Source: a virus (lineage: Duplodnaviria; Heunggongvirae; Uroviricota; Caudoviricetes). Taken from it: DNA of 57,411 bases. The DNA lies in IMG/VR virus record IMGVR_UViG_3300042465_005697, positions 92,280-149,690 of that record; one strand, written 5' to 3'. Below, piece after piece: positions 9,408 through 53,006 of this stretch; the first letter of the stretch is position 1; each line of letters begins with the position of its first letter. A model generated the notes under the pieces. It had not been told where the DNA came from. It was given only the letters and a program-made list of their open reading frames with translations, and made no database searches. The position numbers were made by a program, and so were the translations under genes.

Positions 9408-9420
9408 TTACAGTTTTTAC

Positions 9421-9428
9421 TATAAATA
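9421..9428 (-). promoter_or_regulatory. TATTTATA motif
   Basis: Plus strand reads tataaata; 13 nt upstream of ATG 9407 on the minus strand. Confidence 0.55.
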
Positions 9429-16101: not shown

Positions 16102-16105
16102 ATTG

Positions 16106-17760: not shown

Positions 17761-17827
17761 TTAAATTTAATTGATTGTTTATTACTATAATAATAAATTG
17801 AATTTACAAAAAGAAAATCGTTATGGT

Positions 17828-18532: not shown

Positions 18533-18537
18533 TTTTT

Positions 18538-19128: not shown

Positions 19129-19138
19129 ATTATAGATT

Positions 19139-19870: not shown

Positions 19871-19875
19871 TTATT

Positions 19876-21127: not shown

Positions 21128-21129
21128 AA

Positions 21130-23962: not shown

Positions 23963-23965
23963 TTT

Positions 23966-26125: not shown

Positions 26126-26133
26126 TATAAATA
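26126..26133 (-). promoter_or_regulatory. TATTTATA motif
   Basis: 17 nt upstream of ATG 26108, downstream of a terminator. Confidence 0.55.
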
Positions 26134-31773: not shown

Positions 31774-31781
31774 TATTTATA
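31774..31781 (+). promoter_or_regulatory. TATTTATA motif
   Basis: 14 nt upstream of ATG 31796. Confidence 0.55.
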
Positions 31782-36073: not shown

Positions 36074-36820
36074 ATGTTTGTAACTGTTTGTAATAAAGAA
36101 TATCTTATTGGGTTTGAGGTGATGTTAAAATCATTAATTGATAATAACCCAAGGGTTGTAAATGAAAATATACCATTCATAATTATAAGTAATGATATTA
36201 GTGAGGACGATTTGTTTGTTAGCAAACAAATCCATAACAATATTGACATTAAAAATTTCAATCAAACAAAATATTATGAGATTGATGAGTTAAAGAAGAT
36301 TAAAATGGCATTTGGGGATTACACCAAATATGAAATATTCTCAATTCAAGACACAAATAAAATCATATTTTTAGATTCCGACACTTTAATTTTAGGGAAT
36401 ATTGATTACCTCATAGACTTTAAAGAAGACTTTGGTGCGGTAAGAGAATTATATATTGACCAACATAATACGGGTGTTATGGTTATTGGGAAAAAATATC
36501 TAAACAAACAAATTACAAATGATTTAATAAATCTTACGCAAAGATACGGAATTACAGAACATTTAGATCAAGATATAATTAATAATTATTTTACAGATGT
36601 TATTACAGATATCCCAATCTCATACAATTATTTAAAAATATATTCAAAACAAATATTCCAAAACACCGGATTACCAAACCATATTAAGATTTTACATTTT
36701 ATTGTTAAAAAACCTTGGCAAAACAAACCATTAGTTTTATTGGAAGAAGGGACATTATGGCAAGAAAGATATTGGTTTGAATACCATTCAAAAATATTAA
36801 AATTAAATTATAATGGTTAA
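36074..36820 (+). CDS. Glycosyltransferase family 8
   Basis: IIFLDSDTLILGNID, NTGVMVI, DQDIINNYF, ILHFIVKKPW. Confidence 0.9.
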   Translation: MFVTVCNKEYLIGFEVMLKSLIDNNPRVVNENIPFIIISNDISEDDLFVSKQIHNNIDIKNFNQTKYYEIDELKKIKMAFGDYTKYEIFSIQDTNKIIFLDSDTLILGNIDYLIDFKEDFGAVRELYIDQHNTGVMVIGKKYLNKQITNDLINLTQRYGITEHLDQDIINNYFTDVITDIPISYNYLKIYSKQIFQNTGLPNHIKILHFIVKKPWQNKPLVLLEEGTLWQERYWFEYHSKILKLNYNG

Positions 36821-37730
36821 ACGTCATTACGATCAAAGTGAGTTGTTGGATTATGTTGAGTTGGATCCAAAGACAAAAACATTAGTTGATAAAACAATAT
36901 TACTTCATTTTGATTCTTTTTGTTTGGGTGATACAATTTGTTTTGCATCATTAATAGACCCATTTATTAATTTCCACAAACCAAAAAAAGTTTTAATCTC
37001 AACATTTTTTCCCCATCTTTTAGTATCAACAAATTTAAGTTATGAATTTATTAATGCAAACCAAAAGAAAAGGATTGTTGTGGATAAACTTATTAATGTT
37101 GGTTATGATAAGGGTAGTTTATCTCATACGTTAGGTGGAATGTTTTATGCTGCAAAGGAAAAGTTAATGATACCCCAGGACACAAAACCTGTTAAACCAC
37201 CAATGATATTAAAATTTAGGAACCCAAAACCTAATAAAATAACAATTGGTCCTGAATCATTAAAAGATATTGCCAAATGGACAAAGGATGGTTGGCAATC
37301 GGTTGTTAATAAATTGGTTGAACATAAATACGATGTTTATAATGTATCCTATGAAAATACGATGAACTTACAAAATGTAACACCAATTCACGGAAATGAT
37401 GATATTAATATTTCAATAGACCATATTTTAGATTCAAAATTTTTTATTGGATTATCTTCAGGTCTTGCTTGGGTTGCATGGGCATATGGTGTTCCCGTTG
37501 TTATGATCTCAGGATTTACAAAAGACCATAACGAATTTGATTGTTTTAGGGTTAGAAACCATAATGTTTGTAATGGATGTTTTAATGTGGTGCAAAACAT
37601 AAAAACAAAATGCCCAATATTCTTGGGAACAAATCGTGAGAACGAATGTCATAAGACAATAACACCTGATATGGTTATTGACCAAATTAATAATGTAATC
37701 AAGTTTACAAACAACGAATATAAACTATAA
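36813..37730 (+). CDS. GT9-like glycosyltransferase resembling autotransporter heptosyltransferases (TibC/AAH)
   Basis: FIGLSSGLAWVAWAYGVPVVMISGFT...VCNGCFN...KCP...NECHKTITP, including the four-Cys motif. Confidence 0.7.
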   Translation: MVKRHYDQSELLDYVELDPKTKTLVDKTILLHFDSFCLGDTICFASLIDPFINFHKPKKVLISTFFPHLLVSTNLSYEFINANQKKRIVVDKLINVGYDKGSLSHTLGGMFYAAKEKLMIPQDTKPVKPPMILKFRNPKPNKITIGPESLKDIAKWTKDGWQSVVNKLVEHKYDVYNVSYENTMNLQNVTPIHGNDDINISIDHILDSKFFIGLSSGLAWVAWAYGVPVVMISGFTKDHNEFDCFRVRNHNVCNGCFNVVQNIKTKCPIFLGTNRENECHKTITPDMVIDQINNVIKFTNNEYKL

Positions 37731-38627: not shown

Positions 38628-39446
38628 ATGGTACAAAAGATATTCTTTCAAAGTTCCCTACCAAGAGCGGGATCAACATTACTACAAAATGTTATGGGGC
38701 AAAATCCTGACTTCTATGTAACCCCAACATCGGGTGTTTTAGAGTTGGTGTATGCCGCAAGAAACAATTATACAAATTCACCCGAATTTAAAGCCCAAGA
38801 CACAGAGTTAATGAAAGACGGGTTCCTTTCTTTTTGTAAGAATGGGATGGAAGGGTTTTTTAATGGTGTAACAGATAAACCTTATGTTATAGACAAAAGT
38901 AGAGGTTGGGGTGTTCATTATGGGTTTTTAAATTCATTCTACCCAAACCCTAAGATCATTTGTATGGTTAGAGATTTAAGAGGTGTTTTTGCTTCAATGG
39001 AAAAAAACTTCAGAAAAAATCAACATATGGATTCAGGTTTGGTAAATCACGCAACTATGGTTGGTACCACAACAGAAAAGAGAATTGATACTTGGGCTCA
39101 AAGTCAGCCCGTTGGTATGGCAATTGAGAGATTACAACAAATGTTTAAGGAGGGTGTTGATAAAAAAGTGTTGTTTGTTAAGTTTGAAGATTTTACTTCC
39201 AACCCGGCAAGTGAGATGAGAAGAATTTATGAATATTTGGAACTTCCTTATTTTGAACACGACTTTAATAATGTTGAACAGATGACTAAAGAAGATGATA
39301 GTGTTTATGGTATCTATGGTGATCACAAGATAAAAAACAAAATAGAACCATTAAGAAATGATTTTAACGATGTTTTGGGTGTTAATGCTAGTAACTGGAT
39401 TAAAACAAACTATAAATGGTATTACGATCAATTTTTATATTTTTAA
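38628..39446 (+). CDS. PAPS-dependent sulfotransferase
   Basis: 5'-PSB loop SSLPRAGSTLLQ; 3'-PB motif MVRDLRGVFAS; VKFEDF. Confidence 0.9.
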   Translation: MVQKIFFQSSLPRAGSTLLQNVMGQNPDFYVTPTSGVLELVYAARNNYTNSPEFKAQDTELMKDGFLSFCKNGMEGFFNGVTDKPYVIDKSRGWGVHYGFLNSFYPNPKIICMVRDLRGVFASMEKNFRKNQHMDSGLVNHATMVGTTTEKRIDTWAQSQPVGMAIERLQQMFKEGVDKKVLFVKFEDFTSNPASEMRRIYEYLELPYFEHDFNNVEQMTKEDDSVYGIYGDHKIKNKIEPLRNDFNDVLGVNASNWIKTNYKWYYDQFLYF

Positions 39447-39449
39447 TTT

Positions 39450-39890
39450 ATGATTTATTGGCTTACGGGACAACCGTCCCACGGAAAAACAGTTTTAGGT
39501 GAAATGATGAAAAATCATCTTGAGAAAACACAAGAACAACCATACAGAATTGATGGTGATGATCTTAGAGATTTATTTACAAACAAAGATTATTCTATGA
39601 AAGGTAGGGTAACAAATGTGGATGCCGCTCAGAAGATTGCACATTATTTACATAACCAAGGATATACTGTAATCGTAACTTTGGTTTCACCTTATTTAGA
39701 TCAACGAGAAGAGTTTAAACAAATGCTCGGTGAAGGTATTAAGGAAATTTATATTCATTGCAATGAACCAAGAGAGAGAGATGATTTTGCGGTTGCAGGT
39801 TATCAACCACCACAAAAAAACTTTATTGATATTGATACAACAAACGATACTCCAGAAGAATCATTAAAACTAATATTAAAAAATATATGA
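39450..39890 (+). CDS. cysC: Adenylylsulfate (APS) kinase
   Basis: WLTGQPSHGKT, IDGDDLR, VIVTLVSPY...REE, YQPP. Confidence 0.85.
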   Translation: MIYWLTGQPSHGKTVLGEMMKNHLEKTQEQPYRIDGDDLRDLFTNKDYSMKGRVTNVDAAQKIAHYLHNQGYTVIVTLVSPYLDQREEFKQMLGEGIKEIYIHCNEPRERDDFAVAGYQPPQKNFIDIDTTNDTPEESLKLILKNI

Positions 39891-40351
39891 ATTGGGAAGT
39901 AAAAAATCACGGTGGAGAACCAACAAATAATTCGGATAAAAAATATGCAATCTTTATTGGGAGATATCAACCACCACATTTTGGGCATTTAAATCTTATA
40001 GATCAAAAATTAAATGAAGGTATACCGGCACTTATTATGGTTAGAGATATTGCTCCTGACGATAAAAATCCTTTTACCACAGAACAAACAGTTTCTATGT
40101 TAGAGAAATATTATCATTCAAAGAATAAAGATGTTAAGGTTATGGTTATTCCTGATATTGAGTCCGTTAATTATGGTAGAGGTGTTGGTTATGAAATAAA
40201 TGAATTTACTCCACCAGACAATATCGGGTTTATTTCTGCAACAAAGGTTAGAGAATCAATAAAAAATGGTGAAGATGGGTGGAGAACTATGATTGATGAT
40301 TCCATTCAAGACGATGTAATTAAATATTTATCATATGAAATCACAAAGTAA
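39887..40351 (+). CDS. HxGH nucleotidyltransferase (cytidyltransferase-like; candidate ATP sulfurylase)
   Basis: FIGRYQPPHFGH, ISATKVR. Confidence 0.8.
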   Translation: MNWEVKNHGGEPTNNSDKKYAIFIGRYQPPHFGHLNLIDQKLNEGIPALIMVRDIAPDDKNPFTTEQTVSMLEKYYHSKNKDVKVMVIPDIESVNYGRGVGYEINEFTPPDNIGFISATKVRESIKNGEDGWRTMIDDSIQDDVIKYLSYEITK

Positions 40352-40775
40352 AACTTATCAAATAAGATTCAATACTGTATCTACAGGTGAAAACGATAGA
40401 TGGAGATTAATTGAGAACGGAAATGAAACATTAGTTTCCGACATTTATATTGATGGACACACTTATACAACGAAAGATTGGATAGAGGATATCCAAGATT
40501 ATAAATGGCACATCAGTTGTGTTGGGCATTGTAAAGTTAAAAGTAATTGTGCTTACATCACAACAATTAAAGAAGAATCGGTATTATTAAGACATATTCT
40601 AAAAACAATTAGTTATAGATTGTTAGGAACATTAACTACCGTTATTGTTGCTTTAAGTTTGGGTGCAACTACAGAAGTGTCCGCATTATTAGGTGTGGGT
40701 GAATTGTTAATCAAACCTGTTATTTATTTCTTTCACGAAAGACTATGGTATAAGTTTATTAAGATTAAAAAATGA
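40335..40775 (+). CDS. Protein with C-terminal DUF2061-like membrane domain
   Basis: ILKTISYRLLGTLTT...ELLIKPVIYFFHERLW. Confidence 0.75.
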   Translation: MKSQSKTYQIRFNTVSTGENDRWRLIENGNETLVSDIYIDGHTYTTKDWIEDIQDYKWHISCVGHCKVKSNCAYITTIKEESVLLRHILKTISYRLLGTLTTVIVALSLGATTEVSALLGVGELLIKPVIYFFHERLWYKFIKIKK

Positions 40776-40785
40776 TTTGAGGTTG

Positions 40786-40793
40786 TATTTATA
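40786..40793 (+). promoter_or_regulatory. TATTTATA motif
   Basis: 11 nt upstream of ATG 40805. Confidence 0.55.
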
Positions 40794-40804
40794 GTCTAAG
40801 AACT

Positions 40805-41614
40805 ATGGATCAAACAATTACAATTCAAAGCATAAATTATTCTGGTGAAAGTGCCGAAATAATTTTTAATCCTGATAATGACCCAATTGTCATTAATTTA
40901 AGTGCTCATACGTTACCTTATTTTTTTGATTCTTCATTATTAACTCCACCGAGAGAAATTTATGGGACTTATAGTATTTTGGTTGATAATTGCACATACT
41001 TTCTTAACGTCCCAAGGTTAACACCAACACCTACACCGACGAGAACTCCAACGAGAACTCCAACACCAACTCCAACGCCAACAGTCACACCGACACCAAC
41101 GTTTGATCCGTGTAAGGTTCCGACACCAACACCAACGGTAACAAATACGCCAACAGTTACGCCAACACCAACATCTACGCCAGCACCAAGTTGTACTGAC
41201 CCTTGTTTCTGTGTAACAAAAACGCCAACACCGACACCAACACTTACACCAACAAATACTCCAACACCAACAACTTTCCCGGATAGTCCTGGGATTTATT
41301 ATGGTAAGTTTAATAATACCACAATAACAAGTGCGGACACAGGATCTTTGACGTTTATTTATACTAATAACCCACAAGATAGTTATGTAACATTTAATGT
41401 AGGTTTAGGGTATGGTTACATTCTTATCCCAACATATATACCACAACCAACAGGTTTTAGAAATAGTACCTTTGGTTGTTCAGGGTTTGTGATACCAACA
41501 AATAATATTGGGACGGTAGTTATAGTAGATGCGAATGGTATATTAATAACATATAACATATATAGAACATTTAATACTTTCGGAGGTCAAACCGATAGTT
41601 GGATGTGTAGTTAA
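40805..41614 (+). CDS. Structural protein with mucin-like Pro-Thr repeats
   Basis: About 85-aa TPTPT tract punctuated by Cys. Confidence 0.75.
41021..41274 (+). repeat. Pro-Thr coding microsatellite-like repeat ((acacca)n variants)
   Basis: Imperfect hexamer repeats encoding TPTPT; similar tracts at 30609-30650, 46373-46429 and 46652-46717. Confidence 0.9.
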
Positions 41615-41628
41615 AAAAATAAAGAATT

Positions 41629-43743
41629 ATGATGAGTTTTAGTCTTTCAGGGGGAGTTGAAGTTTTCGGGTTTATATCACCATCGGAACCAACAGATACA
41701 TATCCAGTTATAGATCCAATTTATGGTATTGACGGTTTAAGAAACGTGGATACGATTTTAGATTTAGATAATATACCTGATTTACGAAGACGTGCGGGTA
41801 TGGTTGTGGGGGTTAGTGGTGGAACCGAATATTACAAATTAAATCCTTCTCCGTGGAATTTTGATTTTACCGATTGGTCTGTGTTTAACTCTAGTAGTGA
41901 TTACTTACCGTTATCGGGAGGTACAGTTACGGGTTCAACAATTTTTACCCAAGGACTAACCGCAAATACAATATCGGCAACAACATATGATAATTTACCC
42001 ATTACAGGGGCAACAAGTGTAGGAACGGGACTTACAATCTTTGATAGTGTTGTTGATAGAACAATACAAATAAATACCATTACCGGTGATGATTTAGGTA
42101 AAATACTTGCAACCACAACAAACAATACCATACAAGTAGGTATTAATGAAGAAAATTTAGATTTATGGCCATTAGTCGTTCAAGGAAATAGATTGTTAAG
42201 TGGTGGTGTATCATATGTTAGTGGGTTAACATTTAGTGTTAGTCCAGTCCAATATATTATTGATGGATCAATTTATACCATACAATCACCTACAACAGTT
42301 GTATTAAATTCTGGTGACACTCTATACGATAGAATTGACGTTATTGTTGCTGACATTAGTGGTAATACGATAGTCGTCCAAGGAATCCCTTCAACAAACC
42401 CTGAAAAACCAGACATAGATGAATCTATTGAGGTTGAGGTTACTTTTGTAATTGTAAGGGCAAATAGTGTGACCGCAGATATTGATGGGTTTATAATTTA
42501 TAATGAAAATTTGGGGTCTCCAGCTGAATGGAATTTTGGTGTTGGGGGAACCCAATCGGCAAGAATAATTGGATCATCAACAGGAAATACATATAGTGGA
42601 ACAACATCAATTAGGGTTAGTGGAGTAACTGCATCAAACTATAATACATATTTTAGATTGACGGGAAATACGTCTGTAGATACCAATAACTATGCAACCT
42701 TACAATTCGCACTTAAAAATTTATCAGTAAACACTATTCAAAATAGGATTAGAATAAGATTTTTAACAACAGGTGGAACACAAAACGGTAGTGTGGTTTA
42801 TATGAATGCCGCAGGAACTTCAGGGTATGTACAATATAGTAGTACTAACACATCAACTTGGCAACTTATATCAATACCATTATGGAGATTTTATTTAACA
42901 AACACTAATGTTCAAGTTGTTGAAATAGCGTTTTACCCATTAAATGGAAGTGTTACCTCAAATTATTATTTTGACCTTATTGAGTTTGTTGAAGGTACCT
43001 CATCATCACCACCATCAAATTCGTGGACAAAAATTAAGGGGGATAGTGCCACAACAATAATTGCACCCAACCCAAATGCGACGTTAACAATTTCAGGTGG
43101 AACAAATATTAGTTCATCAATATCTGGATCATCTACCGTTGTATTAAATTTGGATAATAACATTTTACTTAATAGTGTTAGTGCAACAACAATAAGTGGG
43201 GGAACATTTTATGGAAACGGAGCATTATTAACAGGATCAGGACAAAATATTGTAACCATAATTGGTTCGGGTTCGACCTTACCATTATTTACAATACAAG
43301 GATCTAGTGGTGAATTATTTAGCGTTACCGATAGTTTAACGGGATCTTTATTTAGTGTTAATGATATTTCAGGACTCCCAATACTTGAGGTGTTTTCAGA
43401 TAATACAACATTAATGGGTGATTATTTATCACCGTCTTTAAACACAACAAAAAGAGTTAGTGCGGGAATAGGAACAACCGCAATCTATTCTATACCTATT
43501 AGTGCCTACACAGGTGCGTTTTTTGACTATACGGTTAGTGACGGGACAAATTTAAGGTCTGGAAACATTATGTCCATATTTAATAACTTAACAATAAATT
43601 ATAAAGAGGACTCAACAACAGATATTGGTAACACAAGTGGTATAACATTTAATATGATAATAAGTGGTGGGACATCGGCAGTATTGCAAACATCAGGAAC
43701 AACTGCTGGGTGGACAGTAAAAACAATAGTAAGAAGTATATAA
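41629..43743 (+). CDS. Tail fibre-like structural protein
   Basis: G/T/S-rich; YLPLSGGTVTG motif; C-terminal fibre-type LFSV.DISGLPILEVFSD...AFFDYTV region. Confidence 0.7.
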   Translation: MMSFSLSGGVEVFGFISPSEPTDTYPVIDPIYGIDGLRNVDTILDLDNIPDLRRRAGMVVGVSGGTEYYKLNPSPWNFDFTDWSVFNSSSDYLPLSGGTVTGSTIFTQGLTANTISATTYDNLPITGATSVGTGLTIFDSVVDRTIQINTITGDDLGKILATTTNNTIQVGINEENLDLWPLVVQGNRLLSGGVSYVSGLTFSVSPVQYIIDGSIYTIQSPTTVVLNSGDTLYDRIDVIVADISGNTIVVQGIPSTNPEKPDIDESIEVEVTFVIVRANSVTADIDGFIIYNENLGSPAEWNFGVGGTQSARIIGSSTGNTYSGTTSIRVSGVTASNYNTYFRLTGNTSVDTNNYATLQFALKNLSVNTIQNRIRIRFLTTGGTQNGSVVYMNAAGTSGYVQYSSTNTSTWQLISIPLWRFYLTNTNVQVVEIAFYPLNGSVTSNYYFDLIEFVEGTSSSPPSNSWTKIKGDSATTIIAPNPNATLTISGGTNISSSISGSSTVVLNLDNNILLNSVSATTISGGTFYGNGALLTGSGQNIVTIIGSGSTLPLFTIQGSSGELFSVTDSLTGSLFSVNDISGLPILEVFSDNTTLMGDYLSPSLNTTKRVSAGIGTTAIYSIPISAYTGAFFDYTVSDGTNLRSGNIMSIFNNLTINYKEDSTTDIGNTSGITFNMIISGGTSAVLQTSGTTAGWTVKTIVRSI

Positions 43744-43744
43744 T

Positions 43745-44476
43745 ATGAGTTTTAATTTTTCACCAAAAATTTCGTCATTAGATAGTTTAATTTACTATCT
43801 TGATGCATCTAACCCGAGATCATATATTTCAGGGTCTACGACTTGGTATGATATAAGTAGAACCGGAGTGAATGGGACATTAGTTAATGGACCTACATTT
43901 AGTAGTGAAAATGGTGGGAGTATTGTTTTTGATGGTATAGATGATTATATTGGGTTATCTCAAATAACCGCAAACCAAACCATTGGTAATTATACAATAT
44001 CATTATGGATAAGTTTTACAAACACAATAACCCCATCAAACGTAATTAATTTTATGTTAATGGAAGCTCAAAACACTTTGCTTGGTGGTGTTGATAATTA
44101 CATTTCTTTACTAGGTAATACCACCGTTCCTGGAACAAATGGTCGCATACTATTTCAAACCTTTAATCCATTAAGTGTTCTATATAGTACTACTAATACA
44201 TGGATTGGGGGTCAATGGTATAATATTGTAGGTACTTATGATATATCAACATCTAGACAATCTATTTATGTAAATGGAATTTTAGAGGGGTCAACAACAA
44301 TTGCAAATTGTTACTTTAATACAAACACTTATTTTAATTTGGGTACATACACCGTACCTCCTAAACAATGGTTTTTTAATGGAAAAATGGCAAACTTTAT
44401 GGTTTATAAAAAAACATTAAGTTCTGATGAGATACTACAAAACTATAACACAATAAAACCTAAAATAACTAAATAA
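43745..44476 (+). CDS. LamG/concanavalin A-like lectin domain protein
   Basis: YYLDASNPRSYISGSTTWYD...GTLVNGPTFS...IVFDG...WYNIVGTYD...YVNG...Y.K.LSSDEILQNY. Confidence 0.85.
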   Translation: MSFNFSPKISSLDSLIYYLDASNPRSYISGSTTWYDISRTGVNGTLVNGPTFSSENGGSIVFDGIDDYIGLSQITANQTIGNYTISLWISFTNTITPSNVINFMLMEAQNTLLGGVDNYISLLGNTTVPGTNGRILFQTFNPLSVLYSTTNTWIGGQWYNIVGTYDISTSRQSIYVNGILEGSTTIANCYFNTNTYFNLGTYTVPPKQWFFNGKMANFMVYKKTLSSDEILQNYNTIKPKITK

Positions 44477-45165
44477 TGTCTGGAAGAGTATCATATTATG
44501 GTGGGATAGTTAAAGATGGTTTAATTATAGATGTTGATGTTGCAAAATTAGATTCATACCCAAAAAGTGGTATTATATGGAATGATGTTTCAGGTCAAGG
44601 TAATAATTTAACTTTATCAGGACCTGTAAATTATCAACAGGATAATAATCTTTTTTTCCTTAATGGTTCAACAACCTATATGTACAGTAATAATTTTTTT
44701 CCAATTGAGGGTCCTGCAACAATATGTCTTCTTTGTAAACCAACGGCAACTGGGGGTAGAACATTTGTGTCAATATCAAATGTTACAGGAACTGTTGGAC
44801 CTTTTTCCGCATTCCAATTTGGGTATAGATCTGGTTTAGGGAATGCGTTAAGTGTTTGGAAATATGGTGGGGCGGTATTATCATCGTCAGGTGTGTTAAC
44901 TACTGGTGTATGGGCCTATATCTGTGTATCATATTCAACAACATCAATTAAAACATATATTAATGGGGTTTTAAGTAATACTGTTTTATCGCCCGTTTTA
45001 CAAACAGGATTGGGCAGATTTTTAATTGGGACATATAGACACTTACCAACACCATTAGAAGTTATGTTTGGAGATATTGTAATGTCTCAATATTATAATA
45101 GAATATTGAGTGATAGTGAAATCACTCAAAACTTTAACGCAATAAAGGCAAGAAAGGGATTATAA
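44476..45165 (+). CDS. LamG/concanavalin A-like lectin domain protein
   Basis: IVKDGLII...SYP.SG..WND...W.YICVSY...YING...YNRILSDSEITQNF. Confidence 0.85.
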   Translation: MSGRVSYYGGIVKDGLIIDVDVAKLDSYPKSGIIWNDVSGQGNNLTLSGPVNYQQDNNLFFLNGSTTYMYSNNFFPIEGPATICLLCKPTATGGRTFVSISNVTGTVGPFSAFQFGYRSGLGNALSVWKYGGAVLSSSGVLTTGVWAYICVSYSTTSIKTYINGVLSNTVLSPVLQTGLGRFLIGTYRHLPTPLEVMFGDIVMSQYYNRILSDSEITQNFNAIKARKGL

Positions 45166-45168
45166 ATT

Positions 45169-45441
45169 ATGGAAACACAAGATTATGAAAATAGACAATT
45201 TATGATATTCAATATGTCTGAATTAACTCAAATTGATTTTACCCAAGTTGTTGAAACTTCTGAGGAAACTGTTAGGCAATCAATTGATAATACAAAAACA
45301 TTTGTAAAGTGGGATGGTATAACTCCTGAATGTGTAGAAGGTTTATCCACAAAGGAAGGACCATATAACTACGATGAGATTTTATTAATCTTATCAACCC
45401 CTGAATGGACATCTAACAATCGGATAATATGGGAACAATAG
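45169..45441 (+). CDS. Small acidic protein embedded in the LamG cluster (possible assembly chaperone)
   Basis: 90-aa ORF overlapping the next gene. Confidence 0.65.
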   Translation: METQDYENRQFMIFNMSELTQIDFTQVVETSEETVRQSIDNTKTFVKWDGITPECVEGLSTKEGPYNYDEILLILSTPEWTSNNRIIWEQ

Positions 45442-46133
45442 AAGGTGGTGGAAATATTATAACTGATGGTTTAGTCCTATATTTAGATGCCGCAAATCCA
45501 AAATCATATATTTCAGGCTCAACAAATTGGAATGATTTAAGTAAATCATCTAATAATGGAACATTAGTTAATGGTCCAACATTTAATCCCACCAATAAAG
45601 GTAGTATTGTTTTTGATGGAACAAACGATACAACAACGTTTAATTCATCATCAAGTCTTCAATTTTTAAATACCTCACCATATACACTCAGTATATTTGT
45701 GAAAATATTAAGTTCCGATGCGACTTTTTCCGGATTTTTAAATAGGGAAAGTGGATCATCAAGAAATGGTTATAATCTTTGGTTTTATAGAGATAGTATT
45801 AATCAAGTGGCTATCGCTTCCGAAAGATTTGGTGGGACAGGTCAAAAAGTGACTTACATACTTTTAGATAATAATCAATGTATTAATGTTTGGAATCAAT
45901 ACACAATAACTTATGATGGAACAACTTTAAGTTTTTATTTAAATGGTGTGTTTAAACATAGTGTGTTAGCTGATGGGAATATAACAAACACATCTAAAAC
46001 TTTAGAGATTGGTAGTCGGTTAACAGATTACGCAAATTGTGAAATTTCTAACGTAACAATACATAGTAGATCACTATCGTCTTCAGAAATAATTCAAAAT
46101 TATAACTTAACAAAATCACGTTTTGGTTTATAA
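45429..46133 (+). CDS. LamG/concanavalin A-like lectin domain protein
   Basis: IITDGLVLYLDAANPKSYISGSTNWNDLS...GTLVNGPTF...WNQYTITYDG...YLNG...LSSSEIIQNY. Confidence 0.85.
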   Translation: MGTIEGGGNIITDGLVLYLDAANPKSYISGSTNWNDLSKSSNNGTLVNGPTFNPTNKGSIVFDGTNDTTTFNSSSSLQFLNTSPYTLSIFVKILSSDATFSGFLNRESGSSRNGYNLWFYRDSINQVAIASERFGGTGQKVTYILLDNNQCINVWNQYTITYDGTTLSFYLNGVFKHSVLADGNITNTSKTLEIGSRLTDYANCEISNVTIHSRSLSSSEIIQNYNLTKSRFGL

Positions 46134-46135
46134 AG

Positions 46136-46143
46136 TATTTATA
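46136..46143 (+). promoter_or_regulatory. TATTTATA motif
   Basis: 10 nt upstream of ATG 46154. Confidence 0.55.
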
Positions 46144-46153
46144 ATAAACAAAA

Positions 46154-47542
46154 ATGCCACACACAATAGAAATAACAGGAGCAACCGGAACACCACCATA
46201 TTCAGTTTATGTATGTGATTCAACATTCACGTATTGTTATCTTATTACAGGATCAACGATAATACCCCCAACATTTATCTTTGATGTTCCATCACCGTTA
46301 GATGTTGCTTCTTCAGTTATTGTTAAGATTGTTGATGCAAATGGTTGTGAAACGTTTGAACCATATTCTTGTCCTCCGACACCAACACCAACACCAACAA
46401 TTACACCCACGCCATCATCAACACCAACGGATCTGTGTTATTGTTTAATGGCGGTTAATTCGTCTATGGTTGCAGGTTCGTTTGATTATATTGATTGTGA
46501 TGGGGCATCACAAAAAAACATACCAGTACCAATTGGTGTGACGTATTATGCTTGTGGTTGGGCACCAACTAATTTAGTAAATGTAAATGTGGGTATTGGG
46601 GACTTATGTTCTTTAAGTAGTTGTGTCCCACCATTACCAAGTATGTCGGCAACACCGACACAAACACCAACTCCAACGGTTACACCTACAATTACCCCAA
46701 CACCTACACAAACACCTTTACCAATTGCCTTTGTAGGTTTTTGGAGAACACTAAACACATCTGGAGGTTCAAGTGGTAGTAATCAAGTTACATTACCATT
46801 AAATTCTTCAGGAACATATAACTTTGTTGTTGATTGGGGTGATGGTGGTCCGACTGACACAATAACCCTTTGGAATGACCCTTTAACGACACACACATAT
46901 GGAGTGTCAGGTGGCTATACAATAACAATTACAGGAGTAATAAATGGTTTTAGATTTAATAACACTGGTGATAGATTAAAACTATTAAATGTAACGCAAT
47001 GGGGACCACTTAATGTTGGTAATTTTGGTAATTATTTTAGAGGTTGTTCAAATTTAGATTTAAGTGGTGTTTCGGATGTTTTAGATATGGTTGGGACAAC
47101 TAATTGCGTTGAGTTCTTTAGAGGTTGTAGTTCATTAACATCTATAAATAATTTAGAGTTTTGGGATGTATCGTCAGTAACACTTATGAACGGTATGTTT
47201 AGTCAATGTACTACGTTTAATCATAATATATCAACTTGGGATGTATCTTCAGTAACAAATATGAATAGTATGTTTGTTGTAAGCACATCATTTGATCAAG
47301 ATCTAGGTTCGTGGGATGTTTCATTAGTAACCACTATGTTATTAATGTTTGGTTCAGTAACATTATCAACACCAAATTACGATTCACTTTTAAATGGTTG
47401 GGCATCACTTGGTGGATCATTACAAAGTGGTGTATCGTTTAACGGAGGAAATTCTGTTTATACGATTGCAACATCCGGTGTTAGTAGAGCATACCTTACT
47501 GGTACCAAATTATGGACAATAAGTGATGGTGGAGGAATTTAA
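46154..47542 (+). CDS. Structural/surface protein: two Pro-Thr tracts plus BspA/DUF285-type repeats
   Basis: TPTPT tracts; VDWGDG; WDVSSVTLMNGMF / WDVSSVTNMNSMF / WDVSLVTTMLLMF repeats; NYDSLLNGW. Confidence 0.8.
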   Translation: MPHTIEITGATGTPPYSVYVCDSTFTYCYLITGSTIIPPTFIFDVPSPLDVASSVIVKIVDANGCETFEPYSCPPTPTPTPTITPTPSSTPTDLCYCLMAVNSSMVAGSFDYIDCDGASQKNIPVPIGVTYYACGWAPTNLVNVNVGIGDLCSLSSCVPPLPSMSATPTQTPTPTVTPTITPTPTQTPLPIAFVGFWRTLNTSGGSSGSNQVTLPLNSSGTYNFVVDWGDGGPTDTITLWNDPLTTHTYGVSGGYTITITGVINGFRFNNTGDRLKLLNVTQWGPLNVGNFGNYFRGCSNLDLSGVSDVLDMVGTTNCVEFFRGCSSLTSINNLEFWDVSSVTLMNGMFSQCTTFNHNISTWDVSSVTNMNSMFVVSTSFDQDLGSWDVSLVTTMLLMFGSVTLSTPNYDSLLNGWASLGGSLQSGVSFNGGNSVYTIATSGVSRAYLTGTKLWTISDGGGI

Positions 47543-47594
47543 ATTTCTTATTTAGTTTTTTAATTAGTTTTTTATTCTTATCTAAAACTAATTA

Positions 47595-48842
47595 ATGAAG
47601 ATTTTTATTCAAATTGCGTCCTATCGTGATCCCCAACTTATACCAACAATTAAAGATTGTATTGAGAAATCAAAAAACCCTGAAAATTTAAGGTTTGGGA
47701 TTTGTAGACAATATCACCCTGAAGATGGTTTTGATAATTTATCCGAGTATGAAAACGATAAACGTTTCCGAATAATTAATATTCCGTATGAAGAATCTAC
47801 GGGAGTATGTTGGGCAAGAAACCAAGTACAACAACTATATAAGGGAGAAAAATATACCCTCCAATTAGATTCTCATATGAGGTTTGATCAGGATTGGGAT
47901 AAGACCTTAATTAAGATGATTAAGGACTTACAAAAGAAAGGACATAAGAAACCATTATTAACGGGTTATGTGTCGTCGTTTGATCCTGAAAATGACCCAC
48001 AGGGAAGAGTTACAGATCCTTGGAGGATGTCCTTTGATAGATTCACACCTGAAGGTGTTGTTTTCTTCTTACCCGAAGTAATTCCAAATTGGAGAGACCT
48101 ATCAGGACCGATCCCGTCAAGATTTTATTCTGCACACTTTGCATTCACATTAGGTGAGTTTTCAAAAGAAGTTCAACACGATCCCGAATATTATTTTCAC
48201 GGAGAAGAAATATCAATTGCGGTAAGAGCATATACTCACGGGTATGATTTATTTCATCCACATAAAGTTGTTATTTGGCATGAATATACTCGTAAAGGTA
48301 GAACCAAACAATGGGACGATGATAAGGAGTGGTATAAGAGAAATGAATCTTGTCATAAAAAGAATAGACAAATATTGGGTATTGATGGTGAAACATATGA
48401 TGGAGATCTTGGTAAATATGGTTTTGGAACTGAACGAACATTAAAAGATTATGAACAATATTCTGGGGTTTTATTCTCAAAACGAGCAGTTCAACAATAC
48501 ACAATTGATAAACAATACCCACCAAATCCACACACATACAAAACAGAAGAAGAATGGTTAGATAGTTTTACATCGGTATTCAAACATTGTATTGATGTGT
48601 CATTTAATAGTGTTCCTGAAACTGATTATGATTTTTGGGTTGTAGCATTTCACAACGAAAAGGATGAAACATTACATAGACAAGATGCCGATGTGAATGA
48701 AATAAACAGAATGAAACAAGACCCTGATGGATATTGTAAAGTATGGAGAGAGTTTAATACAACAGAAAAACCAAAGTATTGGGTTGTTTGGCCACATAGT
48801 TTATCAAAGGGGTGGTGTGATAGAATAACAGGAAATTTATGA
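47595..48842 (+). CDS. GT60-like (Skp1/polypeptide GlcNAc-transferase-like) glycosyltransferase
   Basis: IFIQIASYRDP, GVCWARNQVQQLYKGEKYTLQLDSHMRF, YFHGEEISIAVRAYTHGYDLFHP...WHEY. Confidence 0.8.
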   Translation: MKIFIQIASYRDPQLIPTIKDCIEKSKNPENLRFGICRQYHPEDGFDNLSEYENDKRFRIINIPYEESTGVCWARNQVQQLYKGEKYTLQLDSHMRFDQDWDKTLIKMIKDLQKKGHKKPLLTGYVSSFDPENDPQGRVTDPWRMSFDRFTPEGVVFFLPEVIPNWRDLSGPIPSRFYSAHFAFTLGEFSKEVQHDPEYYFHGEEISIAVRAYTHGYDLFHPHKVVIWHEYTRKGRTKQWDDDKEWYKRNESCHKKNRQILGIDGETYDGDLGKYGFGTERTLKDYEQYSGVLFSKRAVQQYTIDKQYPPNPHTYKTEEEWLDSFTSVFKHCIDVSFNSVPETDYDFWVVAFHNEKDETLHRQDADVNEINRMKQDPDGYCKVWREFNTTEKPKYWVVWPHSLSKGWCDRITGNL

Positions 48843-49576
48843 AGATAGAGGATATACCAAAATTCATAATAAATTTAAAAAGAAGACCCGATAGACTAGA
48901 ATCCATAAAAAAACAAATGGATTATGTTGGTTGGGAATTTGAGGTCTTTGATGCCGTTGATACAAATTCTTATATGGGGTGTGCATTGTCCCATTTAGGG
49001 ATTTTAAGAATTGCTAAAGAAAGAGGGTATAAAAAAGTTATGATTATTGAAGATGATTGTTTTTTTATGCCATACGCTAAAGAATTAATTGATGATTTAA
49101 ATAATGTATTACCAACCTTAGAATATTTTTATTTTAATTTATCCCCAACTTTAAATAGACATATCAATCTATCTGAAATTTCCAACTATATTCTTGATAT
49201 GAAAAATTTACCTGAAAAACAAAATCCAATTTTTAGAGAAATATACGCAACAAATATGGTTATTTATGATTCATTAATATATGATGAAGTTTTTAAAATA
49301 GAAAAAACTAAAGTTGGGAATGGTGATTTTTATTACGCTATTGATGTTTTTATTTTTGATAATATCATAAATAAGTATCCGTCTTATTGCCCGCATATCC
49401 CTTTATGTTGTCAAGGAAATGATCATTCAGATGTTGGTAATGTTATTTATGATACATTTTACACGCAAACTTATAATTGGAACTCATATAGCCCTTGTAA
49501 AATACCTACAAAATTTTTAAACCTAACTGAAAATAAACAAAAAATTAATAACAAAATCTATGAAACCATCTGTTAA
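48839..49576 (+). CDS. Glycosyltransferase family 25-like
   Basis: FIINLKRRPDR...FDAVD...GCALSH...VMIIEDD. Confidence 0.85.
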   Translation: MKIEDIPKFIINLKRRPDRLESIKKQMDYVGWEFEVFDAVDTNSYMGCALSHLGILRIAKERGYKKVMIIEDDCFFMPYAKELIDDLNNVLPTLEYFYFNLSPTLNRHINLSEISNYILDMKNLPEKQNPIFREIYATNMVIYDSLIYDEVFKIEKTKVGNGDFYYAIDVFIFDNIINKYPSYCPHIPLCCQGNDHSDVGNVIYDTFYTQTYNWNSYSPCKIPTKFLNLTENKQKINNKIYETIC

Positions 49577-50444
49577 ATTTATTACCGCAATTTATAGTGA
49601 TTTATTTGGAACAGAACTAGGTGGTAGACCTAATCGGTTTAATCATTATAGATGGAGTTTATTATCACTTTTAAAAATGAGTGATGCTGATTTTGTATGT
49701 TACACTTCCGATAGGGAATATGATAGTTTAATTAAATTTTTCTACGATGAATTTAGTATCCCAAAAAACAAATTGGAGATTAAAATATTTGATATAGCAA
49801 AAACGAGGTATACAAATATTATAAATAAATTTAAAGATGTTGAATTTACAAAAAATGGTGATAGGTGTGTTGAAATACAATTTATGAAATTTGATTGGAT
49901 TTCATTGGAAGATATGACGTATGATTATTATTTTTGGATTGACTCAGGACTTTCACATTGTGGGTTAATTCCAAATAGATATTTGTCTTTAACTGGTAAC
50001 AATAATAGAGGTTATTATGAATCAAAATTATTTAACAATAAATTTTTAGAAAATTTAATTAAAAACACTGGTGATGAATTTACAATAATTGCAAAAGAAA
50101 ACGAAAGAAATTATTGGTCAGCAACTGTAGATAAAACACATTACACAAATTATGATAGAAGTTACCACGTTATTGGTGGGTTATTTGGTGGTAAAAAAGA
50201 ATTGTGGGGTATTATACCTGAAAAATTTAATAACTATGTTAATGTGGTTTTAGAAAATGATAAAAAAATATATCACGAAGAACATATAATGTCATTAATG
50301 TATAGAAATGATGAAGATTTGTTTTATGTGTATGATTTTGATACTTGGTGGCATGATGATGAAAAAATTCAAGGGTTAGATATTATTGAACACACAAAAA
50401 TTAATAAAAGTTTTTATAAAATTTTAGAAGAATTAAACAAATAA
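49560..50444 (+). CDS. HtrL/YibB (WlaTC)-like glycosyltransferase
   Basis: YYFWIDSGLSH, IGGLFGG, EEHIMSL. Confidence 0.7.
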   Translation: MKPSVKFITAIYSDLFGTELGGRPNRFNHYRWSLLSLLKMSDADFVCYTSDREYDSLIKFFYDEFSIPKNKLEIKIFDIAKTRYTNIINKFKDVEFTKNGDRCVEIQFMKFDWISLEDMTYDYYFWIDSGLSHCGLIPNRYLSLTGNNNRGYYESKLFNNKFLENLIKNTGDEFTIIAKENERNYWSATVDKTHYTNYDRSYHVIGGLFGGKKELWGIIPEKFNNYVNVVLENDKKIYHEEHIMSLMYRNDEDLFYVYDFDTWWHDDEKIQGLDIIEHTKINKSFYKILEELNK

Positions 50445-50446
50445 GT

Positions 50447-52126
50447 ATGATAACATTAGTAACAGGTTTATGGGATATAGGTAGAGGAGACCTTGATGAA
50501 GGTTGGTCAAGATCATACCAACATTATTTGGATAAATTCAAAGAGTTGTTAAGTGTAAACAATAACCTCATCATTTTTGGTGATCAAGAGTTAAAAACTT
50601 TTGTGTCTCAACACAGAGATGATAGTAATACCCAATTTATTTTGAGGGATTTAAGTTGGTTTAAAAATAACGAATACTACCCCATCATACAATCAATACG
50701 AACAAACCCAGAATGGTTTAACCAAGTTGGTTGGTTAGGTGGATCAACACAATCAAAATTGGAAATGTATAATCCTTTAGTTATGTCTAAAGTGTTTTTA
50801 CTTAACGATGCAAAGATATTGGATAAGTTTAATTCGGATAAATTGTTTTGGGTTGATGCTGGTTTAACAAATACCGTTCATTCAGGGTATTTTACCCACG
50901 ATAAAGTATTGGATAAAATTGATAAGTTATCTGATAAATTTTTATTTGTTTCTTTCCCATATGATGCGGAAACTGAAGTTCACGGGTTTAACTATAATGA
51001 AATGAAACGACTAACAAATGCAACACCTAATATTGTTTGTCGTGGGGGGTTTTTCGGTGGAGATAAGGATACCATATCACAAATGAATAGTTTGTATTAT
51101 GGTATATTAATGGATACCCTTAAACGGGGATTTATGGGAACAGAAGAAAGTTTATTTACAATCCTTACTTATCAATATCCAAGTTTAATTGATTATTGTG
51201 AAATCAATTCAGATGGTTTAGTATATAAATTTTTTGAGGATGTTAAAGATAATACAACAAATGTTAAAAATTTTAATGTAGAGTTAAAACAAGTTCAAAG
51301 TAATAATGGTTTAGATATTTCAAAAGTTGGTCTTTACGTTATCACATTTAATTCCCCAAAACAGTTTGAAACCTTAATTCAAAGTATGTTAGGTTATGAT
51401 CCTAATTTTATCACACGAACCAAAAAGTTTTTGCTTGATAATTCAACGGACTTAACTACAACACCACGTTATCTTGAACTATGTGAAGAGTATGGTTTTG
51501 AACATATTAAGAAAGTTAATTTAGGTATTTGTGGGGGGAGACAGTTTGTTTCAGACCATTTTAACGATTCTGATTTAGAAGTTGGAATTTTCAGTGAAGA
51601 CGATATGTTTTTTCAAAATAATCCAAATGAAACTTGTAGAAATGGTTTTAATCGTTACACCCCTAACTTATATCAAAAATGTTTGGAGATATTACAAAAA
51701 GAAAACTTTGATATGTTGAAGTTGAATTTTAGTGAATATTTTGGTGATAACTCCACTTGTTGGCCGTGGTATAATACTCCTCAAGATTTCAGACAAAAAC
51801 ATTGGACGAGCAACCCTAAATTACCGGTACAAGGGTTAGACCCTAATGCTCCTTTAACGGAATTTAAAAATATCAAATCACATAAAGGGTTACCTTATGC
51901 GACAGGTGAAATTTACTACTGTAATTGGACTCATTTTTTTACAAAAGAAGGTAATCGTAAAATGTTTCAAGAAACAAAATGGGATAGGCCGTACGAACAA
52001 ACGTGGATGAGCCACATTTATCAAGAAACAATAAAAGGAAAAATTAAATCTGGTTTATTGTTATTAACACCAATAGAACACAATCGCTTCCATCATTACG
52101 CAGCGGAATTAAGAAAAGAAAGTTAA
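50447..52126 (+). CDS. HtrL/YibB-like domain fused to a second GT-A-like domain
   Basis: TLVTGLWDIGR, FWVDAGL, RGGFFGG, GTEESLFT; second half FLLDNS...IFSEDD...RPYEQTW. Confidence 0.7.
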   Translation: MITLVTGLWDIGRGDLDEGWSRSYQHYLDKFKELLSVNNNLIIFGDQELKTFVSQHRDDSNTQFILRDLSWFKNNEYYPIIQSIRTNPEWFNQVGWLGGSTQSKLEMYNPLVMSKVFLLNDAKILDKFNSDKLFWVDAGLTNTVHSGYFTHDKVLDKIDKLSDKFLFVSFPYDAETEVHGFNYNEMKRLTNATPNIVCRGGFFGGDKDTISQMNSLYYGILMDTLKRGFMGTEESLFTILTYQYPSLIDYCEINSDGLVYKFFEDVKDNTTNVKNFNVELKQVQSNNGLDISKVGLYVITFNSPKQFETLIQSMLGYDPNFITRTKKFLLDNSTDLTTTPRYLELCEEYGFEHIKKVNLGICGGRQFVSDHFNDSDLEVGIFSEDDMFFQNNPNETCRNGFNRYTPNLYQKCLEILQKENFDMLKLNFSEYFGDNSTCWPWYNTPQDFRQKHWTSNPKLPVQGLDPNAPLTEFKNIKSHKGLPYATGEIYYCNWTHFFTKEGNRKMFQETKWDRPYEQTWMSHIYQETIKGKIKSGLLLLTPIEHNRFHHYAAELRKES

Positions 52127-52785
52127 ATTAATTTACCACCTTTTTTTAAATTATCAATTGCCCATAGTGGTTGGAGATTTGTATAGTGGCACAAATTATA
52201 AACCTCATCTTCAGTTTTTGCGGAAGATAAAGGTATTATATGGTCTATGTGAATATGCCGACCCATTAAATCCCAAGACATACCTTCAGTAAATTTTTGT
52301 TCTAAATACTCTTTAAGTTGTATCGGAGAACAACCGACAATTTCAAAAGAAGTTTTTGTTTTGTTTTTTAATACTGAATAAATTCTTGTTCGGACATTAA
52401 AAATTAATTTTTTTAATGGATCGGTTTTTCTAAGAGTCTTATTTCTATTGTTGTAGTATTCATTCATTTTTTCTTTATTACGTTCCGACCATTTTTTTGA
52501 AGTTTCTCTATATTTTTCAGCATTTAATAGATACCGTTCTTTAGTTTTTCTATTTAGATCTTCAAAATTTTTTAAATGGTATTCTTTATTATAGTTAGGA
52601 TTTTTATTATACCAATTTTTTATGGTTATTTTTCTTTTTTCAATATTATTTTTTCGATAAACTTTACCTTCAATTTTACGGCATTGTTTACAAGAAGATC
52701 TCAAATTATCTTTAGATGAGTTATTTACACCAAATTCGCAAATCTCTTTTTCTTCCTTACACTTACTACATATCTTTGTTTGCAT
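52123..52785 (-). CDS. Free-standing HNH-type endonuclease with N-terminal zinc finger
   Basis: KICSKCKEEK...SSCKQC; HIDHIIPLSS...CHYTNLQPLWAIDNLKKGGK; same family as 1650..2336. Confidence 0.85.
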   Translation of the reverse strand: MQTKICSKCKEEKEICEFGVNNSSKDNLRSSCKQCRKIEGKVYRKNNIEKRKITIKNWYNKNPNYNKEYHLKNFEDLNRKTKERYLLNAEKYRETSKKWSERNKEKMNEYYNNRNKTLRKTDPLKKLIFNVRTRIYSVLKNKTKTSFEIVGCSPIQLKEYLEQKFTEGMSWDLMGRHIHIDHIIPLSSAKTEDEVYNLCHYTNLQPLWAIDNLKKGGKLI

Positions 52786-52998: not shown

Positions 52999-53006
52999 TA
53001 TTTATA
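52999..53006 (+). promoter_or_regulatory. TATTTATA motif
   Basis: 14 nt upstream of ATG 53021; divergent from the 52926 copy. Confidence 0.55.

Follow-up and report, generated by a model that had tools for sequence, protein, structure and literature searches.

The window analyzed here is the terminal 57.4 kb (57,411 nt) of a 149,690-bp viral contig from IMG/VR (IMGVR_UViG_3300042465_005697). Directly behind a gene whose product contains proline-threonine (PT) tracts, it carries a set of glycosyltransferase genes, the first of which (47595-48842) is supported by sequence, catalytic motif, and fold as encoding a true GT60-type polypeptide glycosyltransferase, its activity being a prediction. 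We propose that these genes form a phage-encoded, cytoplasmic O-glycosylation cassette in which the GT60 enzyme initiates glycans on Thr residues of PT linkers in fibre- or adhesin-like virion proteins, and a tandem HtrL+GT-A enzyme and variable partners extend them; we give this proposal about an even chance of being correct. Virion glycosylation by phage-encoded enzymes is a kind of system already known; its GT60/PT-linker form would be new, without being a categorically new system.

The contig was estimated by CheckV to be 51% complete. The window starts inside a Gp23-type major capsid gene, includes PhoH, and ends just beyond a family-B DNA polymerase gene, and complete genomes of close relatives measure 272-304 kb. 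Because of this gene content and the size of the relatives, the source is, as judged from sequence, an uncultured T4-like jumbo phage of fresh water. Its host probably belongs to the Bacteroidota, consistent with a segment common to a 704-aa fibre-like protein of the window (residues 534-604) and the annotated tail fiber protein of Flavobacterium phage vB_FspM_immuto (45% identity).

The GT60-like enzyme and its partners

The first-pass annotation, made from the letters of the window, had placed a GT60-like gene, a GT25 gene, and two HtrL/YibB-like genes directly after the last PT gene, and our analysis confirmed this order:

46154-47542, + strand: 462-aa PT protein, directly before the GT60 gene; PT tracts at aa 70-92 and 167-190
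47595-48842, + strand: GT60-type polypeptide N-acetylhexosamine (HexNAc)-transferase-like enzyme (PF11397, E 4.2e-73)
48839-49576, + strand: GT25-family glycosyltransferase (PF01755, E 1.2e-14)
49560-50444, + strand: 294-aa single-domain HtrL_YibB-like protein (hhalign)
50447-52126, + strand: 559-aa tandem enzyme, HtrL_YibB domain (aa 2-249) plus second GT-A domain (aa ~290-545) (E 8.4e-19)

The GT60 assignment was borne out by profile search, with a PF11397 score of 247.3 bits (cut-off 21) and a match to phrog_24687 at E 4.5e-170. The protein consists of a GT-A catalytic domain (aa 1-311) and an extra, beta-rich C-terminal domain of ~100 aa (312-415), and its AlphaFold model is of high confidence (pLDDT 95.6, pTM 0.90). 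Residues D92 (in D92-x-H94), H94, and H229 were invariant across 40 GT60 homologues of 36-88% identity; we interpret them as the DxH-plus-His site that binds the metal in GT27/GT60 enzymes. When the model was compared with Swiss-Prot models, the best match by far was Dictyostelium Gnt1 (E 1e-25, 25% identity, residues 2-311), and the next 29 structural matches were all polypeptide N-acetylgalactosaminyltransferases (ppGalNAc-Ts), which also made up the first 43 matches of a fold search against the PDB. Since these matches comprise Gnt1 and then only ppGalNAc-Ts, every characterised neighbour of the enzyme glycosylates polypeptide. A sequence search of the PDB gave no matches for the GT60-like or HtrL proteins, and a literature search for GT60 together with phage found no relevant paper. 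The chief difference between GT60 enzymes and animal ppGalNAc-Ts is that the former have no C-terminal ricin-like domain (PMC8724618); by analogy, the extra C-terminal domain of the phage enzyme may have a comparable targeting role. A PF11397 profile scan of IMG/VR recovered at least 599 stretches.

Among the partners, family assignment succeeded to differing degrees. The GT25 profile scored 55.1 bits against a cut-off of 24, in two stretches of which the best spans only residues 7-43, and the 559-aa protein exceeded the Pfam cut-off for HtrL_YibB (PF09612; 68.6 vs 24.1 bits). The 294-aa protein, which the first-pass annotation had called HtrL/YibB-like as well, had no match in Pfam or NCBIfam. 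An Atlas feature search pointed to HtrL clusters, and when the profile of its family was compared by hhalign with the HtrL domain in the family of the 559-aa protein, the two aligned over 221 columns (97.5% probability, E 7e-12), which makes it a putative HtrL paralogue. Since the 559-aa protein scored far under the equivalog cut-off of NCBIfam TIGR02192 (72 vs 265 bits), it is a member of the family rather than an equivalent of YibB. Its model (pLDDT 86) has two Rossmann/GT-A-type domains joined by a disordered linker (278-286), and its best PDB matches were enzymes with two GT-A domains, namely mimivirus R699, human LH3, ColGalT1, E. coli K4 chondroitin polymerase, LARGE1, and heparosan synthase. 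Considering that the TM scores were low (~0.26) and that the domain arrangement differs, these matches support the architecture and not a specific activity.

Conservation of the partners was assessed over 80 related loci. The 559-aa enzyme was kept in 77 of the 80, at a median identity of 65%, and the other two slots were variable, with homologues of the 294-aa protein in 16 loci and of the GT25 enzyme in five. A protein in which HtrL and GT60 are fused also exists (P0151), and the two genes are adjacent in four lineages, i.e., that of the window, the XacN1-like phages, and two marine lineages. Because of this fusion and the recurrent adjacency, the GT60 and HtrL enzymes very probably act in one pathway. 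No signal peptide or transmembrane (TM) segment was found in any glycosyltransferase of the window; all are soluble.

Pro-Thr proteins and transcription units

To define PT tracts, we applied a fixed rule (a 12-aa window with P+T of at least 9, P of at least 4, and T of at least 3) to the 324 open reading frames (ORFs) of at least 60 aa in the entire contig. Only three ORFs contained such tracts, exactly the three genes in which TPTPT tracts had been noted in the first-pass annotation, and all lie on the same strand within a single block of fibre-like genes. In addition to the 462-aa protein listed above, this block includes:

29541-31760, + strand: 739-aa protein, rich in Cys, whose single short PT tract spans aa 356-371 (nt about 30606-30653); 60-78% identity in relatives
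40805-41614, + strand: 269-aa PT protein in which three PT tracts (aa 70-160) separate a conserved 70-aa N-domain from a conserved C-domain
41629-43743, + strand: 704-aa tail-fibre-like protein, with modular N and C ends common to other loci
43745-46133, + strand: three Laminin_G_3 (concanavalin-like) proteins (PF13385; E 4e-17, 9e-12, 4e-16) and a 90-aa ORF

Neither the 739-aa nor the 269-aa protein had a match in Pfam, PHROGs, or the cultured-phage database. The 462-aa protein is laid out as an N-domain, a PT tract, a second domain, a further PT tract, and a DUF285/BspA-like repeat, and the Laminin_G_3 stretch matched phrog_8510, 'virion structural protein'. No signal peptides or TM segments were found in the PT proteins, whose N-terminal domains are conserved and whose C-terminal modules are exchanged among relatives. 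In this setting of Laminin_G_3, DUF285/BspA-like, and tail-fibre-like neighbours, it is plausible that the PT proteins are of structural type. The DNA under the tracts is a degenerate hexamer repeat (65-70% matches), and it is therefore as amino-acid sequence that the tracts are kept. TPTPTP occurred 26-43 times in related complete genomes, compared to 0 for a reversed-pattern control. The ~70-aa N-domain may be an adaptor or attachment module, to judge by its occurrence. Free-standing ORFs of 94-99 aa that correspond to this domain, with the motif TGTPPY...VCD, adjoin fibre-like genes in two other loci, L421 (5806-6093, 10639-10929) and L422 (6768-7052, 12848-13147), where GT60 is 41-44% identical.

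The window is very rich in glycan genes, and three plus-strand units are each led by a fibre-like gene behind the octamer TATTTATA. The first comprises an SGG-repeat fibre gene followed by genes for GT8, a GT9-fold enzyme, a sulfotransferase, an adenosine 5'-phosphosulfate (APS) kinase, a nucleotidyltransferase, and a DUF2061 protein; the second comprises the 269-aa PT protein, the 704-aa fibre-like protein, and the three Laminin_G_3 proteins; and the third comprises the PT/DUF285 protein, GT60, GT25, the HtrL-like protein, and HtrL+GT-A. The octamer stands 10-14 nt ahead of the ATG of the genes starting at 31796, 40805, 46154, and 53021, e.g., 11 nt upstream of 40805 (40786-40793) and 10 nt upstream of 46154 (46136-46143). 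The copy ahead of 53021 is at 52999-53006 (+), and minus-strand genes have copies at 5897-5904, 9421-9428, and 26126-26133. Across the contig there are 74 copies on both strands, and 36 ORFs have a copy 3-21 nt (mostly 10-17) upstream of the ATG. We consider TATTTATA a candidate promoter or leader motif of the phage that marks the starts of transcription units. It is absent before the major capsid gene, and counts of TATAAATA scarcely exceeded chance; its designation as a late promoter was therefore not adopted. A scan for sigma-70 promoters did no better on the sequence than on shuffles. Since the 52-nt gap between the PT gene (46154-47542) and the GT60 gene contains neither a terminator nor a copy of TATTTATA, leaving GT60 without a motif of its own, the two genes are likely co-transcribed.

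The genes of the first unit are:

31796-35554, + strand: 1252-aa fibre-like protein with SGG/IGG 15-aa repeats, first gene behind TATTTATA (31774-31781)
36074-36820, + strand: GT8 glycosyltransferase (PF01501, E 1e-18)
36813-37730, + strand: GT9-fold enzyme, closest to the autotransporter protein O-heptosyltransferases Aah/TibC (TIGR04414, E 1e-31)
38628-39446, + strand: sulfotransferase (PF13469), first of a four-gene sulfation set
39450-39890, + strand: APS kinase, second of the set
39887-40351, + strand: small HxGH nucleotidyltransferase, third of the set
40335-40775, + strand: DUF2061 membrane protein, fourth of the set

The GT9-fold enzyme scored 110 bits against TIGR04414, below the 200-bit equivalog cut-off, and matched lipopolysaccharide (LPS) heptosyltransferase I only at E 0.005; on these profile scores it is a relative of Aah/TibC and not an equivalent. 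Its gene lies ~1.3 kb downstream of the SGG-repeat fibre gene, so that here too a fibre may be paired with a protein glycosyltransferase. The small HxGH nucleotidyltransferase might be an ATP sulfurylase.

Candidate acceptors and competing explanations

In the mechanism that we favor, 46154-52126 would be one unit, transcribed from the motif before the PT/DUF285 gene through the four soluble glycosyltransferase genes. The GT60-like enzyme would act in the cytoplasm of the infected cell, transferring a HexNAc, most likely alpha-linked N-acetylglucosamine (alpha-GlcNAc) from UDP-GlcNAc, onto Thr of Thr-Pro linkers. Its acceptors would be newly made fibre- or adhesin-like virion proteins, i.e., the product of the upstream neighbour, that of ORF 40805-41614, and others in trans, and the glycan would be extended by the conserved HtrL+GT-A tandem enzyme together with the variable GT25 and HtrL-like enzymes. 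Which proteins are modified, with which sugar, and in what sequence the enzymes act are inferences, as is any benefit to the phage. A scheme of GT60 priming and extension by partners had been put forward in the first-pass annotation; the polypeptide-type GT60, the soluble enzyme set, and the PT neighbourhood agree with it, and there is evidence against a strict link between GT60 and PT tracts. The advantages suggested there (protection from proteases, mimicry of host glycans, and adjustment of receptor binding) are speculative. The gene for the GT8 enzyme (36074-36820), which that scheme had included as a putative extender, belongs to another unit farther upstream, where it follows a different fibre and adjoins the gene for the Aah/TibC-like enzyme.

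Evidence that associates GT60 with PT proteins came from several phage groups. A PT ORF lies within 10 kb of GT60 in about 72 of the 80 related loci, and 20 of 33 distinct architectures of the upstream gene have PT tracts. The upstream genes of the lineage have a conserved ~70-aa N-domain in common and swapped C-terminal modules, and the informative point is that the PT linker persists through this shuffling. A PT protein is found beside GT60 in other phage lineages as well, at GT60 identities of only 41-80%; in contigs G028, G015, G025, and G029 (GT60 at 44, 41, 61, and 68% identity, respectively), a PT tract lies 1-3 kb away, among fibre-like genes. In XacN1, whose GT60 is 48% identical, the gene for a 3313-aa PT protein comes after those of the baseplate wedge, at a distance of about 9 kb from the GT60 module, and XacN1-like genomes have 19-29 TPTPTP sites compared to 0-1 for the reversed control (29 vs 0 in XacN1 itself). 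Finally, we compared viral contigs encoding (TP)5 with controls encoding (GS)5, taking for each pattern the first contigs returned, roughly 20-30 kb or longer. PF11397 was present in 7/36 of the former and 0/37 of the latter (Fisher p = 0.005). An eighth GT60-positive '(TP)5' contig, G021 (which would have made 8/36), was removed, as its match came from a (VG)n repeat on the opposite strand. A comparable case was seen in L420, a complete 108-kb phage, in which a distant GT60-like gene (339 aa, 29% identity) directly adjoins the gene (8333-10540, - strand) for a fibre-like protein of 735 aa, whose long (VG)n tracts mimic (TP)n when the opposite strand is read.

Several observations weigh against PT linkers as the acceptors. 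Since the upstream genes share their N-terminal domain, the synteny of PT and GT60 within the lineage is, on this sequence evidence, largely inherited. The contig sample is confounded, the PT contigs being mostly fragments of jumbo phages and the controls mostly small complete phages. Many proteins contain PT tracts that are no more than flexible linkers. The replication module of TARA marine T4-like contigs, whose GT60 is 51% identical, holds the GT60-HtrL pair between the regA gene and that of the gp43-type DNA polymerase, accompanied by GT10 and an FkbM-type methyltransferase; neither in these contigs nor in L088 and L086 is there a PT ORF within 10 kb of GT60. Median identities are 77% for GT60, 65% for the HtrL tandem enzyme, and 71% for the DNA polymerase, and the fibre genes are far less conserved; conservation like that of the polymerase would suit a core function that is not necessarily tied to the variable fibres. 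In addition, complete relatives have a second group of PT genes ~70 kb from GT60, among SprB-repeat proteins, and no glycosyltransferase was found beside them. Such distant PT genes fit action in trans and equally fit PT tracts that are mere linkers. The co-occurrence that the first-pass annotation had proposed as a check was seen in several divergent lineages, and the marine contigs and the 70-kb PT genes show that it is not strict.

The marine contigs, the conservation of the pair, and the distant PT genes are also the strength of the alternative that survives best, namely that the GT60-HtrL pair glycosylates some other protein (capsid, tail, or a host protein during takeover) and that the PT tracts are ordinary linkers, their nearness to GT60 reflecting no more than a common position at the margin of a plastic fibre region that adjoins the DNA polymerase gene. 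The pair is near the DNA polymerase gene in the window and in XacN1 as well as in the marine contigs, and Gnt1, the closest characterised relative, modifies one cytoplasmic protein and not mucin-like tracts. This explanation is countered by the PT proteins that flank GT60 across divergent lineages, including the XacN1-like phages, by the enrichment of GT60 among PT-tract viral contigs, and by the several extending or modifying enzymes that accompany GT60, more than the tagging of a single host protein needs. Furthermore, the Thr of a TPTP repeat has Pro at +1 and +3, the context in which enzymes of GT27, the sister family, prefer to glycosylate. We consider this alternative unlikely, with a minor but real chance of being correct.

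The cassette could instead remodel the host envelope (LPS core, capsule, or another surface glycan), blocking superinfection or masking receptors. The GT25, GT8, GT9, and HtrL/YibB families are named after LPS-core genes, the window also holds a DegT fragment, a PglD-like acetyltransferase, an O-methyltransferase, and a sulfotransferase, and cyanophages with many glycosyltransferases have been interpreted as envelope remodelers (PMC12801897). However, by structure and by sequence alike the GT60-like enzyme has only polypeptide transferases as its closest relatives, the best match of the GT9-fold enzyme is to protein heptosyltransferases and not to those of LPS, and the genes are embedded among fibre-like genes with which they are probably co-transcribed. 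Moreover, there was no candidate for an initiating phosphoglycosyl transferase, flippase, polymerase, or ligase. By hydropathy scan, rather than a search with hidden Markov models, the contig contains no Wzx-, Wzy-, or WecA-type polytopic ORF, its most hydrophobic ORF having four TM-like segments, and none of the 642 ORFs scanned in G001, a complete 304-kb relative reassembled from pieces, has four or more such segments. Given this lack of polytopic proteins, a lipid-linked export pathway would need to be wholly the host's. These results leave envelope remodeling a small chance.

A bolder version of the favored mechanism is that a mucin- or proteoglycan-like coat of the fibres is built wholly in the bacterial cytoplasm, in steps of GT60 priming, synthesis of a disaccharide chain, sulfation, and parallel heptosylation. 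In this scheme the tandem HtrL+GT-A protein would be a bifunctional enzyme or a polymerase laying down a repeating disaccharide (cf. K4CP, LARGE1, heparosan synthase, and the collagen glycosyltransferases), the phage sulfotransferase would sulfate the chain, supplied by the APS-kinase/3'-phosphoadenosine 5'-phosphosulfate (PAPS) genes, and the Aah/TibC-like enzyme would heptosylate the SGG-repeat fibre in parallel. If true, such a coat would be the prokaryotic-virus counterpart of eukaryotic mucin and glycosaminoglycan biosynthesis; we regard its chance as slim.

Modification of hydroxyproline, the acceptor of Gnt1, was dropped as a route for the phage, since no 2-oxoglutarate (2OG)-oxygenase of the prolyl hydroxylase family (PF13640) was found in the contig or in five complete relatives, i.e., in six genomes, by a search that detected its positive controls. 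In some bacterial relatives the two types of domain are fused. The proteins P0122 (L087, 10001-17386; 2461 aa) and P0123 (1641 aa) have four GT60 domains fused to prolyl-hydroxylase-type 2OG-oxygenase domains and resemble the Skp1 hydroxylase-plus-Gnt1 logic joined in one polypeptide. P0122 has two prolyl 4-hydroxylase (P4H)-type domains and an AhpC/TSA domain, its locus lies among bacterial housekeeping genes, and a weak PF13469 sulfotransferase (L087, 9074-9892) adjoins this 4xGT60+2xP4H fusion gene.

Lastly, the enzymes might glycosylate phage DNA carrying hypermodified hydroxymethyl-pyrimidines and so evade restriction. The phage is T4-like, the GT60-HtrL pair is beside the DNA polymerase gene in three lineages, a dUTPase/dCTP-deaminase-like gene adjoins the pair in marine contigs, and phage GT-A-fold DNA glycosyltransferases related to the base-J glucosyltransferase have been described (bioRxiv 10.1101/2023.12.21.572611). 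The contig, however, contains no thymidylate-synthase-family gene, and five complete relatives have a single one each, about 164 kb from GT60 in G001 and about 133 kb in G002-G004. The two of these genes that were read are of ordinary ThyA type: one keeps the PFNIASY and PPCH motifs, and the other is closest to B. subtilis ThyA, the 60 PDB matches listed for it including no dCMP hydroxymethylase. A search for Tet/JBP domains, in which the control genomes were silent as well, gave no match, and no DNA glycosyltransferase was among the structural matches of the GT60-like enzyme. The first-pass annotation had named action on host LPS or on DNA as what would refute its proposal; neither export-type polytopic genes nor a hydroxymethyl-pyrimidine route was found, the latter with the silent Tet/JBP control in mind. 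Considering the ordinary ThyA type of the genes read, we rate DNA glycosylation low, as a very improbable explanation.

Known systems and remaining glycan genes

The closest parallel to the window is the cultured Xanthomonas jumbo phage XacN1, whose virions have at least two glycoprotein bands positive by periodic-acid-Schiff staining (PMC5852040). It has a three-gene module of ORF334 (48% identity to the GT60-like enzyme), ORF332 (29% to the 294-aa protein), and ORF330 (41% to the 559-aa protein), as well as the giant PT-tract protein after the baseplate wedge genes. It differs in being a distant phage with a gammaproteobacterial host, and its module has a carbamoyltransferase in place of GT25. 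Its authors proposed two annotated glycosyltransferases, ORF328 and ORF334, as the enzymes responsible, and they neither recognised the GT60 nature of ORF334 nor linked the PT tracts (PMC5852040). Weighing against our proposal, the glycoproteins of XacN1 and the responsible enzyme were never identified (PMC5852040). Since XacN1 is cultured and has the same module, the idea is directly testable.

Among eukaryotic enzymes, Dictyostelium Gnt1, the Skp1-hydroxyproline alpha-GlcNAc-transferase, resembles the phage enzyme in its GT-A fold, its DxH motif with a distal His, and its soluble, cytoplasmic nature. Unlike Gnt1, the phage enzyme, known here from sequence and model and 25% identical to it, carries the extra ~100-aa beta-rich C-domain, and the prolyl 4-hydroxylase of the Skp1 pathway was not found in the phage contig or the five complete relatives. 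The Golgi alpha-GlcNAc-transferases that start mucin-type O-glycans in protists (Dictyostelium, Trypanosoma cruzi) serve mucin domains (PMC8724618), which the Thr/Pro-rich candidate acceptors of the phage resemble. The animal GT27 ppGalNAc-Ts have a sister fold, the DSH metal motif in common with the phage enzyme, and a catalytic domain with a C-terminal accessory domain, and they initiate on Thr in Pro-rich tracts; they are, however, only 10-17% identical and are type II membrane proteins of the Golgi with a ricin-type lectin domain.

To our knowledge, glycosylation of its own virion by a phage has been demonstrated by experiment only for a few mycobacteriophages and is hinted at for XacN1. 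In mycobacteriophages, according to work cited in PMC12619734, virion glycosylation by phage enzymes is established, and glycosyltransferases of the phage act in the cytoplasm of the host on structural proteins of that same phage, as we propose here. The glycans in mycobacteriophages are reported to be on the C-termini of capsid and tail-tube subunits, whereas the candidate sites here are internal PT linkers and the lead enzyme is of GT60 type. Giant viruses also have soluble glycosylation enzymes of their own for virion proteins (chlorovirus capsid glycans; mimivirus R699, collagen-type), but with eukaryotic hosts and other lead enzymes and acceptors, and the match to R699 concerns the tandem GT-A architecture only (TM 0.26). 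The bacterial autotransporter heptosyltransferases Aah/TibC are matched by the product of 36813-37730 (E 1e-31), whose gene follows the repeat fibre and adds a second case of a repeat protein paired with a protein glycosyltransferase in the block; its score falls short of the equivalog cut-off (110 vs 200 bits), and its gene is in a separate unit upstream of the region from the 269-aa PT gene to HtrL+GT-A.

If the GT60 reading is true, very abundant jumbo phages of fresh water and soil would decorate fibre linkers in the cytoplasm with a mucin initiator of protist type, an enzyme found in about 600 or more IMG/VR contigs and more than 7,000 protein clusters. The logic of mucin-type O-glycosylation would thereby extend to bacterial viruses, and GT60 and GT27 would gain a large prokaryotic-virus branch, relevant to the origin of both families. 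Such decoration would bear on the stability of phages and the recognition of their hosts, as well as on how the immune system recognizes therapeutic phages, and the enzymes would provide soluble, single-chain polypeptide HexNAc-transferases for glyco-engineering in bacteria.

Two further features of the window were observed. A second glycan island, on the minus strand (14235-25102), contains GT2 enzymes, one of them a double GT2 of 503 aa, a GT4-like enzyme, the PglD-like acetyltransferase, and a TylF/CmcI-type sugar O-methyltransferase. One of its ORFs (20480-21127, 215 aa) matches only the N-terminal quarter of DegT aminotransferases and may represent a truncated or split gene. An HNH-type endonuclease-like gene (52123-52785, - strand) separates the HtrL+GT-A gene from a conserved 138-aa ORF; since a homologue is present in only 6 of the 80 related loci, it is probably a mobile insertion.

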